Below are positions 338 through 57,745 of a DNA stretch of 64,000 nucleotides, piece by piece. The notes beneath the pieces are model-generated. The model was not told the origin of the DNA and did no database searches. It saw nothing but the letters and a program-made list of their open reading frames with translations. Location: contig JBAZPX010000004.1 of assembly GCA_041645555.1 (NCBI GenBank), forward strand, positions 10,334-74,333, in the 5' to 3' direction. Both the position numbers and the translations under genes were made by a program. This DNA comes from Patescibacteria group bacterium. GTDB taxonomy: Bacteria; Patescibacteriota; Patescibacteriia; Patescibacteriales; JAQTRU01. Within the stretch, counting starts at the first letter, position 1. Each line of letters starts with the position of its first letter.

Positions 338-384
338 GTCCCGCCACCTTATTATTGTGGGCGGGATCCCGCCATGGCGGTGAT
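338..384 (+). repeat. GC-rich two-hairpin element upstream of the methyltransferase CDS (copy 1; copy 2 at 42770-42825)
   Basis: Sequence gtcccgccac..gtgggcgggatcccgccatggcggtgat. The same arms in the same order recur upstream of trmD. The element ends 18 nt before ATG 403. Confidence 0.5.
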
Positions 385-402
385 AGATTAGCATTATTTT
401 AT

Positions 403-1620
403 ATGAAATACTTCTTCATCCTAGGCAACAATCCAACCCTATCTATAGCCGAAATTTCGGCTGTTTTTAGCCTGGGCGATAATCCAAAAGCAGAAATCCT
501 TGGCCAGGAGGTTTTTTTATTAGAAACTGAAAATAATTTTAATCCGGCCGAATTAATTAAAAAACTGGGCGGAATAATTAAAATTGGCTCGATCTCCAAT
601 GAATTTAATTTTGATAACCAAAAAATAATAGCCGAAGCGGAAAAATTAATTGATACAAATTATCAGGGAAAAATAAAATTTGGGATTTCTCATTATGGCA
701 ATAAACAACTGAATCTTAAAGTTATCGGCATGGAAATAAAAAAATGCTTGAAAGAAAAAGGCATTAGCGTCCGCTGGGTGGTAGGCCGAGATAAAGTTTT
801 ATCAAGCGTCGTGGTTGAACAAAATAAATTAATCTCACAGGGCGCGGAGATAATTTTAATTCAAAAAGATAACCACGTTTTAATCGGCAAAACTTTAGCG
901 GTCCAGCCGTTTAAAGAACTATCTTTCCGCGATTATGGCCGACCGGGCCGGGATGATTATTCCGGCATGCTCCCGCCGAAGCTGGCACAGATTATGATAA
1001 ATTTAGCCCTACCCCACCCCTCCGGCTCCTCTCTCCTAATTAGGAGAGAGGACGGGGGTGAGGTCATCCTTGACCCCTTCTGCGGCTCTGGCACGATTTT
1101 AACTGAAAGCCTGTTGATGGGCTATAAAAATTTAATCGGTTCTGATATTTCCCCGAAAGCAATTGAAGATACGAAAAAAAATGTTAAATGGATAATTGAA
1201 AATTGGAAATTGAAAATTGGAAATTTAAAATTTTATCAGCAAGATGCGCAAAAAATATCTCAGGAGATTAAATCTAACTCAATAGATTATATAATTACTG
1301 AACCCTACCTTGGCCCGCAAAGAGGGAAAATTGACATAAAAAAAATTGTCCAAGAACTAGAACAATTATATACCAAGTCATTGTCAGAATTCAGTAAAAT
1401 TTTAAAACCGGATGGATGGATAGTTATGATCTGGCCGGTCTTTCGCATAACGCATAACGTAGAACGCATAACGCCAAACATTATTGGCTTTCAAATAATC
1501 AACCCCATTCCGGAAAATTTACGGCAAGACAAGAGAATAAAATTAACCGACAGAAACACGATTATTTACGGACGTGAACAACAAAAAGTCTGGCGGGAAA
1601 TCGTGATATTAGAAAAATAA
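403..1620 (+). CDS. SAM-dependent RNA methyltransferase (Trm11/RlmL-like, THUMP-like N-terminal half)
   Basis: ORF 355-1620 trimmed to ATG 403 (MKYFFILGNNP). Class I methyltransferase motif I ILDPFCGSGT and motif IV-like ITEPYLG. Confidence 0.6.
   Translation: MKYFFILGNNPTLSIAEISAVFSLGDNPKAEILGQEVFLLETENNFNPAELIKKLGGIIKIGSISNEFNFDNQKIIAEAEKLIDTNYQGKIKFGISHYGNKQLNLKVIGMEIKKCLKEKGISVRWVVGRDKVLSSVVVEQNKLISQGAEIILIQKDNHVLIGKTLAVQPFKELSFRDYGRPGRDDYSGMLPPKLAQIMINLALPHPSGSSLLIRREDGGEVILDPFCGSGTILTESLLMGYKNLIGSDISPKAIEDTKKNVKWIIENWKLKIGNLKFYQQDAQKISQEIKSNSIDYIITEPYLGPQRGKIDIKKIVQELEQLYTKSLSEFSKILKPDGWIVMIWPVFRITHNVERITPNIIGFQIINPIPENLRQDKRIKLTDRNTIIYGREQQKVWREIVILEK
1012..1063. repeat. GC-rich palindromic element inserted in-frame in the methyltransferase CDS
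   Basis: Perfect palindrome cctctctcctaa/ttaggagagagg (1028-1051) flanked by ccccacccc and gggggtgagg. It encodes PHPSGSSLLIRREDGGEV just before motif I. Same motif set as the DUF559 gene flanks at 36531-37028. Confidence 0.6.
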
Positions 1621-6049: not shown

Positions 6050-6520
6050 CTAACCTTTAGACACATCAGCCCCGCCAACCCAATTCATACTGTTAAACAC
6101 GAAATAAGTAATGGCATAAGCTGAAACTGTAATAATTAAGCCGATTACCGCCCGCCAGATTGTTTCTTTCGCTTCCGTCATTTTTTCTTCATTGCCGGAC
6201 GCGGTCATCCATTTATACCCGGCCGTAATCATCAAAACTAAAAAAATAACGCCCAACAATCCTAAAAAAGCCTGGATTACCACGGCCAAAATTCCCGCAA
6301 AAGATGATCCGGTGGCGGCGGCAAAACCGGATTTACCCCTAAAAGCTTCCGCCTGCTCGCTACCTGCCGGGCCAAACCCTTGGGCTAAAGCCAAATCAGC
6401 GATTCTAAAATTTAAGACAGACAACACTAAAAATGCTAAAAAATAGTTTACCCCGTTAGCCCCGCTTAGAAATTTATTTCTAACGGGGTTAATAGGGTTT
6501 GTTTTTTTATAAAAATTCAT
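6050..6520 (-). CDS. TrbC/VirB2-like (T4SS pilin-like) small membrane protein, paralog 1
   Basis: Signal region plus two TM helices. Shared loop motif ITAGYKWMTASGNEEKM. Confidence 0.7.
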   Translation of the reverse strand: MNFYKKTNPINPVRNKFLSGANGVNYFLAFLVLSVLNFRIADLALAQGFGPAGSEQAEAFRGKSGFAAATGSSFAGILAVVIQAFLGLLGVIFLVLMITAGYKWMTASGNEEKMTEAKETIWRAVIGLIITVSAYAITYFVFNSMNWVGGADVSKG

Positions 6521-9095: not shown

Positions 9096-9199
9096 AAAAT
9101 TTAATTTCTTATTTTCCCCTTAACTTTCCACTTGCTCCGGACACAACAAATATTATGTCCAGAGGAGTGGATCCCCGCCAAAGGCGGGGAAACCACCTA

Positions 9200-24747: not shown

Positions 24748-24932
24748 GGGCGCATAGCTTCCTCCTTCGTCCCGCCAAAGGCGGGACTTCGGACGGACAA
24801 GCAGTTGGCCCGCCTCGCCGAGCTGAAGCTCGGCTTCAGCGAGGCGGGTTAGAGCATCTCGTTTACACCGAGAGGGCCCTGGGTTCGTCGGGTCATCCGA
24901 CCCGACGCCCAGCCGGATGACTGGGCGAATCC
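24748..24932 (+). pseudogene. tRNA-Val(TAC)-like copy interrupted by three ~40-nt GC-rich hairpin insertions and lacking the 3' acceptor strand
   Basis: Segments gggcgcatagct / cagttgg / ttagagcatctcgtttacaccgagagggccctgggttcg / aatcc are identical to the intact gene at 24977-25050. Inserts lie at 24760-24801, 24809-24848 and 24888-24927. Confidence 0.75.
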
Positions 24933-24976: not shown

Positions 24977-25050
24977 GGGCGCATAGCTCAGTTGGTTAGA
25001 GCATCTCGTTTACACCGAGAGGGCCCTGGGTTCGAATCCTAGTGCGCCCA
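24977..25050 (+). tRNA. tRNA-Val (TAC)
   Basis: Acceptor GGGCGCA/TGCGCCC, anticodon arm TCTCG-TTTACAC-CGAGA, T arm CTGGG-TTCGAAT-CCTAG. Confidence 0.9.
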
Positions 25051-25057
25051 CATAAAA

Positions 25058-25126: not shown

Positions 25127-25609
25127 ATGAAGAAAATAATAACCAATTCGGAAAAAAAAACTTTGGCCTTGGCTAAAAAATACGCCAAAACTTTAAAAAG
25201 CGGGACAATACTGGGCTTAATCGGAAATTTAGGCGCGGGTAAAACCGTTTTTATTAAAGGCCTAGCCCAAGGTTTGGGGCTTAAAAAAAATATTACCAGC
25301 CCGACTTTTGTAATAATGAAGGTTTACCCTATTAAATCGCGCTCAACGCGAATTTTGCCAAAGGCAAAATTATTTGACGGGGCATACCCCATTAAAAAGG
25401 GAAAAATTAAAAACCTTGTCCATATTGACGCTTACCGCCTTAAATCGGCCGGGGATTTAATCGCTATCGGCGCGGGAGAGTACTTTAACCGGACCGGGAC
25501 CTTAACCGTAATTGAATGGGCGGACAAGATTAAAAAAGTCTTGCCAAAAAGGACAAAATACGTTAAGATAAAAATCTTAGAAGGTAATAAAAGGGAAATT
25601 AAATATTAA
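25127..25609 (+). CDS. tsaE: tRNA t6A biosynthesis ATPase TsaE
   Basis: GNLGAGKTVFIKGLAQGLG..SPTF..HIDAYRL. Carries a 20-codon insertion (separate feature). Confidence 0.8.
   Translation: MKKIITNSEKKTLALAKKYAKTLKSGTILGLIGNLGAGKTVFIKGLAQGLGLKKNITSPTFVIMKVYPIKSRSTRILPKAKLFDGAYPIKKGKIKNLVHIDAYRLKSAGDLIAIGAGEYFNRTGTLTVIEWADKIKKVLPKRTKYVKIKILEGNKREIKY
25325..25396. repeat. 60-nt in-frame insertion in tsaE bounded by a 12-nt direct repeat
   Basis: taccctattaaa (25325-25336), then a 48-nt segment with hairpins tcgcg-ctcaa-cgcga and ttttgcc-aaa-ggcaaaa, then taccccattaaa (25385-25396). Duplicates the peptide YPIK. Confidence 0.7.
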
Positions 25610-25611
25610 TT

Positions 25612-26463
25612 ATGTTCAGAGAAAATTTTTTAGCCCAACTTAACGAAGACGAACAATTAACAGCCGCCGAAGATAAAGTTTGCGATGAAATGAGAAGAGT
25701 TAAAGAACCGAGCCTTAAAGAAAAAGATTTTGAAGGGATTTATTCAAAGACGGAAGTAGAAAGAGACCTTGAATTAACCCAGAAATTAGAAAAGGGGCAT
25801 GTTCTCCGCACGGAAAGAGGGGAAATATTGGAAAAAGTTTTACGACGGGAAATTTATAATTCCTGCTGGTTTGGCGACAACTGCGAAACGGTCCAGACTA
25901 CAAAGTTTGATGATTATGTTAACCATACGGATTTCGTAATTGAGTTGGACACTGACGACAGGATTAAACTGGCGGTTGACACTACCGTGACTAATGATAC
26001 GGAGGTAATAGAAAAAAAAGTTATAAAAATAAAAAATGAGCTTGATAGAAAAATAGGAACAACTATTAAATACTTCCAATCTAATTTAACCTGGGAAGAT
26101 AATCCGGAGAAAGGCGAAATTAAGGATATCCCTAGCGTTATCATCGCTTTTGATTATGAGAATTTACAAAAAATGTGTGAAATCATGGCTGGTCCCGGCG
26201 GGAAAGAAAAATTAGGAAGAACATCACTCCAAATATATATTTTAGAAGACGTAATCAACCAGCTTGAAATCCAGGGAGAATACTTGGAAAAAAATATAAA
26301 AGGCGGAAGCGACACAAATATCTATAAAAATATCAAAAGAGCAGAGGAATATTTGAGAGAAATTCTTGAGAGTAAAAGAGAATCAGCTGAAATCGAAAAT
26401 AAGGGAAACGTCAGAAACGAGTCTATCTCGGCAAGGGAAAAAATTACCCTTTTGGCCGCATAA
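25612..26463 (+). CDS. hypothetical protein (283 aa, acidic, no recognisable domain)
   Basis: Long ORF starting 3 nt after the tsaE stop, with coding-like composition. Confidence 0.5.
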   Translation: MFRENFLAQLNEDEQLTAAEDKVCDEMRRVKEPSLKEKDFEGIYSKTEVERDLELTQKLEKGHVLRTERGEILEKVLRREIYNSCWFGDNCETVQTTKFDDYVNHTDFVIELDTDDRIKLAVDTTVTNDTEVIEKKVIKIKNELDRKIGTTIKYFQSNLTWEDNPEKGEIKDIPSVIIAFDYENLQKMCEIMAGPGGKEKLGRTSLQIYILEDVINQLEIQGEYLEKNIKGGSDTNIYKNIKRAEEYLREILESKRESAEIENKGNVRNESISAREKITLLAA

Positions 26464-36530: not shown

Positions 36531-37028
36531 ACCTCACCCCCCGTCCAAACTACCTCACCCCCGACCCCTCCCCTAGTCAGGGGAGGGGGAATTAAATAAA
36601 TCTTTTCTGATTTTATTTAAAACTGCTTCTATATTATTCTCAACTTCTTTATTTTTAAATCTTATAATTTTATAGCCGGCTTGCTTTAAGATATCTTCTC
36701 TAATTAAGTCCACTTCTTTTATCTCCCTTTTATTATGAACTCCGCCGTCAATTTCTATTATCAATCTTTTTTGGGGACAATAAAAATCAATAATAAAATT
36801 ATAAACTCCCAAAACCAATGGCTCCTGCCGCCTAAATCTAAAGCCTAATTTTCCATCCCCTAGTTCTCTCCAAAGTATTTTTTCGGCTTTGGTCATATCC
36901 TGCCGAAGCGCTTTAGCTATATATAATATTTTTGTATTTCCCGACATATAGATATCATCTCCCCCGGCCCCTCTCCTGACTAGGAGAGGGGAAGCGATCC
37001 GCCAGCTGGCGGAGAGACGGGGTGAGGT
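36531..37028. mobile_element. DUF559 endonuclease gene unit bounded by inverted GC-rich ends (putative selfish element)
   Basis: acctcacccc (36531-36540) is the exact reverse complement of ggggtgaggt (37019-37028). Internal palindromes cccctcccc-tagtca-ggggagggg (36565-36588) and cccctctcctgac/taggagagggg (36968-36991). Confidence 0.45.
36573..36947 (-). CDS. DUF559 (Vsr/restriction-endonuclease-like) domain protein
   Basis: ORF trimmed to MSGNTKILY. LR...T.AE..LW..L......FRRQ....Y..DFYC....L.IE.DG..H, then IIRF.N.EV. Confidence 0.7.
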   Translation of the reverse strand: MSGNTKILYIAKALRQDMTKAEKILWRELGDGKLGFRFRRQEPLVLGVYNFIIDFYCPQKRLIIEIDGGVHNKREIKEVDLIREDILKQAGYKIIRFKNKEVENNIEAVLNKIRKDLFNSPSPD

Positions 37029-53057: not shown

Positions 53058-53127
53058 ACCGATTTACAAACCAAATTCAGAAAAAACGGTTTGACCTCTG
53101 TAATCCCGCCAAGGGCGGGACGAAAGT

Positions 53128-53314: not shown

Positions 53315-53611
53315 GAGAAAAAATCAAATTGCTTAAAAATAAAAAGTTTACCCCGTTAGAAAAATACCTTTGACTAAGTCGAAGGTATATAATATTCTAT
53401 CGCAATTAGCAATAAAAAGCTACTGGGAAACAACGCATTTCTAATGGGGTGAATTAGAAATCCACAGTCTAAATACCATCTTAACCTATATTTTTACTTT
53501 TGACAAACCCCCCTCATTAACCTACAATTAACTAGAAGGAGGATCTTAAAATGATAACTCTAAAAGGCAAATAAACTCGGGTAAAAAGGGGGATTTGCCT
53601 GCCTAAAAACT

Positions 53612-57609: not shown

Positions 57610-57745
57610 CCCCACCTCACCTCCGCCTCGGCAAGCCTCCGGCCCGCTTCTCCGCCAGCTGGCGGATTCAGCGAGGCGAGCGAGACGGGCTAGCCCTCTC
57701 CTTAAATCCCCCTTACCCCCTTTACCGAAAGGGGGTATAAAAAGG
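57610..57745. repeat. composite of GC-rich palindromic modules
   Basis: cccacctcacc, ccgcctcggcaagcc, tccgccagctggcgga (also at 36998-37013), ttcagcgaggcg (also in tRNA-Val insert 2), and the cccctttaccgaaaggggg hairpin. Confidence 0.6.

Follow-up and report, generated by a model that had tools for sequence, protein, structure and literature searches.

The tsaE gene of a bacterium of the Patescibacteria group (25127–25609, plus strand), contained in a 64-kb stretch of contig JBAZPX010000004.1 that was analysed as a whole and is here termed the window, carries 60 extra bases that, with high probability, represent a copy of a palindromic repeat that is small, dispersed and non-autonomous. The 160-residue gene product is identified as TsaE by Pfam (PF02367, 2e-33) and is intact except for the insertion, with the Walker A (GNLGAGKT), SPTF, HIDAYR and EWAD motifs all present. 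The Pfam domain is matched as two stretches with a break at residue 70, and alignment with the Bacillus subtilis TsaE of solved structure places 5 residues where the window protein has 28 (residues 68–95). The element lies in frame and without stop codons at the tip of a β-hairpin between SPTF and HxDxYR. An in-frame 60-nt insertion, the removal of which restores the usual spacing between SPTF and H.D.YRL, had been proposed in the initial annotation of the window, and both proposals are borne out by the B. subtilis alignment, by the existence of short-spaced homologues and by a syntenic relative (L002), in which tsaE is shorter by exactly 60 nt and both flanks align cleanly.

The element proper occupies 25322–25387 on the plus strand, where a covariance model (R1) built from 26 copies of other genomes, with no member inside a long open reading frame (ORF) having a TsaE context, matches over its full length (model positions 1–65 of 65; cmsearch 52.6 bits, E = 5.2e-10). 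This score lies in the middle of the range of the family, and the minus strand of the site scores only 20.1 bits. The left terminal inverted repeat, TTTACCCTATTAAAT (25323–25337, plus strand), is the outer stem's 5' strand and can be aligned with uucACCCUGUUAAAU, the consensus of the family; it falls on the codons of the native V-Y-P-I-K, and the empty allele of L002 has GTTTACCCTGTTAAG in its place. It is followed on the same strand by two adjacent inner hairpins, tcgcg-ctcaa-cgcga (25337–25351) and aattttgcc-aaa-ggcaaaatt (25351–25371), both of which had been seen in the initial annotation, the second now with a perfect 9-bp stem. Hairpin 2 is near-identical to that of a copy in L109 (attttgccgaaggcaaaat) and almost identical to that of a copy in L081. 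The right terminal inverted repeat, ATTTGACGGGGCATA (25372–25386, plus strand), is eroded, with 11 of its 15 positions pairing with the left end in a manual reading of the cmsearch alignment, and the 3' strand of the outer stem reads TTTGACGGGGC (25373–25383). RNA folding of 25318–25402 gives −27 kcal/mol (z = −3.8), a stability reached by 0 of 200 shuffles.

The insert is followed by a second copy of the left-end motif, TACCCCATTAAA (25385–25396, plus strand), which together with 25373–25382 makes a third hairpin absent from the initial annotation, tttgacgggg-cata-ccccattaaa (25373–25396). That annotation had paired this motif, taccccattaaa, with taccctattaaa at 25325–25336 as a 12-nt target-site duplication. 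The two 12-mers are indeed equal at 11 of 12 positions, offset by 60 nt and separated by 48 nt. Their reading as a duplicated target is not upheld: the first copy is the left inverted repeat of the element itself and pairs with 25372–25386, and the two-hairpin class of the family shows no flanking duplication above chance (120 copies). Owing to the repeat, the native YPxK cannot be assigned to one of its two copies and the exact junction is ambiguous. Filled tsaE alleles run from the left end through the hairpins, the right end and 2 nt to a left-end motif, and the same junction of right end, 2 nt and left end occurs at tandem elements in L106, L020 and L066. The array in L106 (2403–2649) consists of a 47-nt version of the element repeated with a period of 47, with identical units and TC spacers, and is in part N-masked.

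The first repeat was recognised as the 5' strand of the outer stem from a second copy of the element in L007, outside tsaE and between cmk and rplS, which reads GACCCCGTTAAA – hairpin – hairpin – ATTTAACGGGGTTGAC. The canonical element measures 58–66 nt and runs from TTY-ACCCYGTTAAA through two hairpins, the first short and GC-rich and the second longer, to TTTAACRGGGT-RAA. Its ends, of about 14 nt each, are inverted repeats, the pairing of which yields a three-way junction with zero unpaired bases. A gapped pattern of these ends, ACCCYRTTAAA-N(18–48)-TTTAACRGGGT, matched the L007 copy between cmk and rplS and every other filled tsaE locus then compared (L003–L006, L008 and L009), except L001. 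Searches of the window and the first loci with a 33-nt core (up to 3 mismatches) and by short-word BLAST had returned the tsaE copy only, an impression of a single copy that was overturned by recognition of the inverted-repeat ends. Within the window, the 9-mer TTAACGGGG is not enriched (15 matches against 24 expected).

In a scan of one genome per prokaryotic species, the gapped pattern was matched at at least 120 loci, against about 17 hits that we calculate for chance (19 fixed and 3 two-fold positions, 31 gap lengths, 1.2e12 positions). Most hosts are Patescibacteria, comprising, among the matches listed, Parcubacteria, Saccharibacteria and Nealson-, Nomura-, Moran-, Doudna-, Magasanik-, Kuenen-, Kaiser-, Niyogi- and Komeilibacteria; the same matches include Omnitrophota, WOR-3, Cloacimonadota, Desulfobacterota, Bacteroidales, Calditrichaceae and Marinimicrobia, and several genomes with copies on multiple contigs. 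Model R1 recovered additional copies within the same loci. Across the listed matches the ends are near-invariant, with conserved TTY/RAA extensions, and the interior is variable, almost always with two adjacent hairpins. At the positions 3 and 2 nt outside the ends, T is found on the left in 105 of 120 copies and A on the right in 106 and 103 of 120, respectively.

Conservation of the fold is reflected in covariation. Of the cells in 26 oriented copies, selected because they fold into two hairpins, 90% pair, compared with 34–45% in slid registers; the covariation score was unmatched by 500 shuffles, and changes on both sides of the stem were found at 5 of 5 pairs in the family equivalent of hairpin 1 and, in that of hairpin 2, at 7 of 9. 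Nearly all pattern matches in the unfiltered list fold into an outer stem and two hairpins. Both features of the family, two inner hairpins and enclosing inverted-repeat ends, are present at the tsaE site. Because an independent model made from foreign copies matches 25322–25387 over its full length, the tsaE insert is, by this sequence comparison, a member of the ACCCYGTTAAA...TTTAACRGGGT three-way-junction repeat family defined here.

Two weaker variant copies were found in the window. One is intergenic (6446–6493; cmsearch 24.9 bits, E = 0.0025), has arms of ACCCCGTTAG / CTAACGGGGT motifs and overlaps the sole window match of the gapped pattern (6450–6498; 0 expected by chance); the other adjoins a tRNA-Arg gene (53346–53454; 23.7 bits, E = 0.0047), with ends GTTTACCCCGTTAGAAA ... 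TTTCTAATGGGGTGAAT and an interior of about 75 nt. The end form of both is ACCCCGTTAGAAA / TTTCTAAYGGGGT. Rfam 15 holds no family that matches the tsaE site at gathering or permissive thresholds, and none was found at 15 loci with consensus-like copies or, under an E-value threshold, at the L109 copy. In an incomplete collection of texts, the end strings occurred solely in unrelated papers and no such element was described for CPR (Candidate Phyla Radiation) bacteria or Patescibacteria. BLAST of the consensus against plasmid and phage collections gave no match, and only 4 matches came from viral contigs, where the element is rare.

Some subsets of the family depart from the canonical arrangement. 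In Nomurabacteria-like genomes (L040, L043, L044, L048 and L117; L101, L105 and L111) the element stands upstream of start codons, at a distance of 30–40 nt and in one fixed orientation, enclosed by further inverted repeats (GAGCGAAGCGAAT ... TCGCTTCGCTC), with downstream genes that include a translational GTPase and an apparent ribosomal protein L9; here it may have been co-opted as a 5'-leader structure. In a WOR-3 subclass (L062, L065, L069, L110, L112, L122 and L125) the same ends surround a hairpin-free interior of 41–47 nt (TAGAGNCGCCTTATAGCAAC...), and the flanks are 8-bp direct repeats, ATCTGCGT or its complement ACGCAGAT, which have the appearance of either a genuine target-site duplication or a fixed target.

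Alignment of TsaE orthologues revealed both filled and empty alleles among relatives. The spacing between SPTF and HxDxYR in the 120 best homologues falls into two classes, one of 17–19 residues (about half) and one of about 26–47, and filled and empty alleles are interleaved. The closest empty alleles (P0009, P0010, P0012 and P0015, 77–81% identical) have VYPVKKGKIKNF. The syntenic relatives L001, in which tsaE is filled, and L002, in which it is empty, share the gene order rplS – tRNAs – tsaE – 283-residue ORF – lspA – dksA. In the window, this 283-residue ORF (25612–26463) begins 2 nt downstream of tsaE; its synteny is kept in L001 and L003, and it has no Pfam match.

Filled alleles differ in how closely they retain the insert. 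The window and L003 share 88% identity over the 60-nt insert, compared with 70.9% over the gene flanks and 51% at third codon positions. Between the window and L001 the insert is 78% and the flanks are 88% identical, so that the insert is no better conserved than its surroundings, and the L001 copy is decaying, with two mismatches in hairpin 2 and the second repeat copy lost. In L005, the TsaE of which is about 52–55% identical to that of the window, all three hairpins are kept with entirely different stem sequences, and the copy is near the consensus (79.9 bits). The tsaE gene of L007 uses a different frame for the conserved DNA motif TTATTTNAYGGGG, giving SFRGSERNSTKSGVISWG and not SRS...AKLFDG. 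Judged by these comparisons, selection in the tsaE insert acts on the nucleic acid and not on the peptide.

The orientation of the element also differs between lineages. The plus strand is the best-scoring in tsaE of the window, L001, L003, L005 and L007, whereas in L008 model R1 scores 61.3 bits on the minus strand against 36.3 on the plus strand. Because the best-scoring strands are opposite, the tsaE site was hit at least twice, in opposite orientations and in different lineages. The empty site of L002, GTT TAC CCT GTT AAG, matches the extended left end of the element (GTTCACCCTGTTAAA) at 13 of 15 positions by manual count. Among the 80 metagenomic tsaE loci sampled, empty alleles encode YP(V/I)K by differing synonymous codons (TATCCAATTAAG, TACCCCGTAAAA and others), which are therefore native and not scars of excision. 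In other lineages (L131, L144, L149, L163, L185 and L186), unrelated short tandem-repeat expansions, including (AATCCGA)n, (CAATCAC)n and (AATGTCA)n, occupy the same β-hairpin loop. Judged by these expansions the loop is clearly permissive, a general hot spot for length change.

Insertion into genes is a property of the family at large. The element lies at more than 100 unrelated sites, including other ORFs and operon spacers, and 18 of 125 pattern matches (about 14% of the sampled copies) lie in long stop-free ORFs, most of them read as (V)[HYN]PVK-x9-15-[QL]FN[RG]V. A few of the 18 are probably not within genes; the L016 element, for example, is more likely upstream of the true start. Ten hosts were confirmed by Pfam: an amidase (GatA), GatB, an rRNA adenine dimethylase (KsgA), two glycosyltransferases, DNA polymerase I, a class-V aminotransferase, FtsZ, an S-adenosylmethionine (SAM) methyltransferase and ribosomal protein L18, with the domain match split at the element in 3 of them. 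No out-of-frame interruption of a gene was found among the pattern matches, which fits translation of the insert and purifying selection, not its removal from the message. The candidates for splicing or bypass, TyrS/PheS and alanine racemase/acetolactate synthase, proved to be merely adjacent genes; in TyrS, the final residues HPVK and the stop codon are supplied by the element. In the opposite orientation, the consensus interior has TAA straight after PVK, which accounts for in-gene copies being mostly in one orientation.

Structure prediction makes the insert a disordered loop on the protein surface. The AlphaFold2 model of the window TsaE has a mean pLDDT (predicted local distance difference test) of 84.8, and Foldseek aligns it to solved TsaE structures with template-modelling (TM) scores of 0.71–0.78. 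Residues 70–90, between strands 64–68 and 96–101, have pLDDT values of 53–57 and no secondary structure, compared with 84–95 elsewhere. As both flanking strands start or end at catalytic motifs, the loop should lie, from the topology, at the end of the sheet far from the ATP site. We infer that the insert is translated as 20 extra residues that the enzyme tolerates.

The initial annotation had held that the same 20 residues in distant orthologues would mark the segment as an ancestral loop. Such orthologues exist, and the peptide SRSARILPKAKLFNGVNPVK recurs in TsaE proteins only 56–69% identical to that of the window, as expected if a lineage-specific loop had been selected for a function of the protein, with the hairpins incidental. 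Yet an ancestral loop is not favoured: close relatives have empty alleles interleaved with the filled ones, the orientation is opposite in L008, the insert outpaces third codon positions in conservation between the window and L003, and the same DNA recurs in hundreds of copies outside tsaE, in unrelated genes and in intergenic DNA, all of which point to an element that was conserved or re-inserted. The loop is moreover predicted to be disordered, and lineages that read the same DNA motif in different frames have peptides without relation to one another, SFRGSERNSAKSGVISRGK among them. The frame-shifted variants, together with the copies outside tsaE, essentially refute an ancestral protein loop, and we give it next to no chance. 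A local origin, by slipped replication or a template switch in a loop prone to repeats and without relation to a dispersed element, would suit the permissive and unstable site on which the tandem-repeat expansions converge; it is nevertheless highly improbable, as the full-length match of a model made from foreign genomes (E = 5e-10) argues strongly against it, and hairpin 2 is almost identical to those of the L109 and L081 copies.

A functional cis-acting RNA in the tsaE message that, for example, pauses translation, is cut by an RNase or governs stability, and that selection keeps at the locus whatever its origin, would agree with the 88% against 51% identity between the window and L003, with the maintenance of the L005 hairpins through wholesale compensatory replacement, with the fold z-score of −3.8 and with the fixed-orientation leader copies in Nomurabacteria-like genomes. 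We consider it unlikely, as other ORFs and the spacers of operons carry the same element, at more than 100 unrelated sites in all, the copy in L001 is in decay and less conserved than its flanks, the orientation is reversed in L008 and close relatives do without the element. A strand-specific RNA signature, sought as an excess of G·U over A·C mismatches, was not found: the counts are symmetric in the three helices (49/39, 9/7 and 12/17), which speaks for a palindrome at the DNA level rather than for selection on a single RNA strand. The 11-of-12 direct repeat around 48 nt, the terminal inverted repeats, the multiple copies, a size too small for a transposase gene and the 8-bp direct repeats of the WOR-3 subclass would in turn fit a classical miniature inverted-repeat element that moves by cut-and-paste transposition and leaves the 12-nt repeat as its target-site duplication. 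This is very improbable, given that the first repeat copy aligns to the inverted repeat of the element and not to flanking DNA, that the two-hairpin class is devoid of flanking duplication above chance, that other in-ORF copies have no second left-end motif behind the element (L014 is a possible exception) and that the 60-nt insertion is shorter than the canonical unit including its TTY/RAA extensions.

Under the interpretation as a copy of a dispersed palindromic repeat, the insert would simply be translated, its 20 extra residues forming a tolerated surface loop, and selection would retain in genes only those copies that have an interior length divisible by three and the orientation without TAA straight after PVK. 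The native VYPVK codons (GTT TAC CCT GTT AAR), which mimic the left end at 13 of 15 positions, would probably serve as a recurrent point of landing or recombination, and this mimicry would account for the second left-end motif after the insert, which resembles the junctions of tandem elements. With no target-site duplication, no nearby transposase and no strand bias in the mismatches, a DNA-level process dependent on the inverted-repeat ends is favoured over an RNA intermediate; it could consist of mobilisation in trans by some enzyme, or of recombination or template switching between end-like sequences. The neighbours of clustered copies are housekeeping genes such as ftsX, ftsE, prfB, murJ and dnaB, with no transposase among them. 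The ends contain GTTAAAT/ATTTAAC, and attC and dif/Xer sites were considered and rejected by reasoning, the polarity being inside-out relative to attC and the arm single; hammerhead and other ribozymes were likewise rejected, the junction having no unpaired core.

Several points weigh against this interpretation. Choosing the 26 copies for their two-hairpin fold inflates the covariation statistic, although the unfiltered matches fold alike. The 64-kb window holds one strong and two weak variant copies, so that dispersal within this genome is barely sampled. A flanking duplication above chance comes from the WOR-3 subclass only, and in about 1 Mb of loci no mobilising enzyme or autonomous partner was detected, pairs of ends 0.4–4 kb apart enclosing no convincing transposase. 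That the insert is so well conserved between the window and L003 could also mean a functional structure in tsaE mRNA, and translation of the insert is deduced rather than observed. A further-reaching possibility, which we put forward tentatively and regard as doubtful, is that the family represents an undescribed type of mobile DNA that crosses phyla: a perfect three-way junction of about 60 nt with invariant 14-nt inverted ends, spreading without target-site duplication through an enzyme that may be host-encoded or replication-associated, and homing to end-like sequences, by which it would colonise essential genes (tsaE, gatA, gatB, ftsZ, polA and rplR) of ultra-small genomes.

Other hairpin-rich and tRNA-like features occur in the window. 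Upstream of the real tRNA-Val gene (24977–25051) lies a second tRNA-Val-like sequence (24748–24930) that matches its 5' two-thirds, has no 3' acceptor strand and is called by neither ARAGORN nor Rfam. It contains three GC-rich hairpin blocks of 40–42 nt after GCATAGCT, CAGTTGG and GGGTTCG, the first of which is kept in L001–L003 with compensatory stems (GTCCCGCC...GGCGGGAC / GTCCGCCG...CGGCGGAC / GTCCCAAA...TCGGGAC). The same end motifs, CACCCCGTTAAATTTT ... AAAAATTAACGGGG, surround a complete tRNA-Val in L001 (9690–9900) and L002 (9780–9880); this nested tRNA-Val occupies the place of the anticodon loop of the outer tRNA-Val-like sequence, the 3' half of which (GGCCCTGGGTTCGAGCCCTAGTGCGCCCAC) comes after it. 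Within a methyltransferase ORF (355–1620, plus strand), an in-frame GC-rich nested hairpin at 1013–1076 (CCCACCCC..TCCTCTCTCCTAATTAGGAGAGAGGA..GGGGGTGAGG, −38 kcal/mol) encodes PHPSGSSLLIRREDGGE directly before the VILDPFCGSGT motif and may represent a further hairpin, from a different family, inserted in frame. GC-rich hairpins recur in this window of 40% GC at 36565–36588, 36968–37013, 57651–57682, 24808–24847, 9172–9190 and 53104–53120, and repeated hairpins comprise TCCGCCAGCTGGCGGA (twice), CCCCTCYCCT-N4-AGGRGAGGGG (twice), CCCGCCAAAGGCGGG (two to three times) and TTCAGCGAGGCG (twice), the last of which also makes the second insert of the L009 tsaE gene (SFSEAS). GC-rich perfect hairpins were called 68 times, in some cases as alternative stem/loop versions of a single hairpin, whereas shuffles give about 8.

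The likeness to Rickettsia palindromic elements (RPEs) suggested in the initial annotation stands for the behaviour of the element and falls for its membership of that family. As summarised in PMC3184786, RPEs (Ogata et al. 2000) measure about 105–146 bp and are confined to Rickettsia, and, going by the same summary, both kinds of element are palindromic, dispersed and non-coding in origin, are found between genes and in frame within conserved protein genes that they do not destroy, are read in more than one frame and reside in hosts with small, reduced genomes. Insertion in frame at tolerant sites of conserved genes, typical of RPEs, is seen here in TsaE, GatA, GatB, KsgA, DNA polymerase I, FtsZ and L18. 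The length differs, at 58–66 nt for the element and 60 nt for the tsaE insertion against the 105–146 bp of PMC3184786, as do the host phyla, here Patescibacteria and other uncultivated phyla. By description, the element is also set apart from RPEs by ends conserved across several phyla, by its perfect three-way junction and by re-insertion at a site that mimics its own end.

MITEs (miniature inverted-repeat transposable elements), as defined in PMC3184786 with Correia, RUP and Nezha as examples, share with the element a short core between terminal inverted repeats (here the conserved TTY-ACCCYGTTAAA / TTTAACRGGGT-RAA ends), the lack of a transposase, multiple copies, a long stem-loop fold, and empty and filled sites in relatives. 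The target-site duplication of MITEs is missing from the two-hairpin class; in addition, the element is much shorter than most MITEs, its interior is conserved as a structure of two covarying hairpins and not as a sequence, and the approximately 1 Mb of loci yielded no parent insertion sequence that shares its ends. Repetitive extragenic palindromes (REPs), which are extragenic single hairpins of about 35 nt (PMC3184786), and bacterial interspersed mosaic elements (BIMEs) resemble it in their short GC-rich hairpins, many copies, absence of target-site duplication and frequency in operon spacers, as between ftsX, ftsE and prfB in L042; they differ from its 58–66-nt three-way junction, its conserved 14-nt inverted ends and the location of about 14% of its sampled copies in long ORFs. 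The behaviour of the element is thus RPE-like, its architecture is closest to that of a MITE without target duplication and its intergenic habit is REP-like, while a defining feature of each class is lacking.

To our knowledge, in-frame 'selfish' palindromes in protein genes are textbook material only for Rickettsia. Behaviour of the RPE type is now seen in Patescibacteria and several other uncultivated phyla, with a much smaller element. The element explains puzzling length variants of CPR housekeeping proteins, namely inserts of 15–20 residues of the form xPVK...FNRV, and its covariance model is usable for masking such inserts in alignments and phylogenies. It raises the mechanistic question of what moves a 60-nt three-way junction without target duplication in transposase-poor genomes, for which the recurrent insertions in both orientations at the end-mimicking site of tsaE offer a natural system for the study of target choice.

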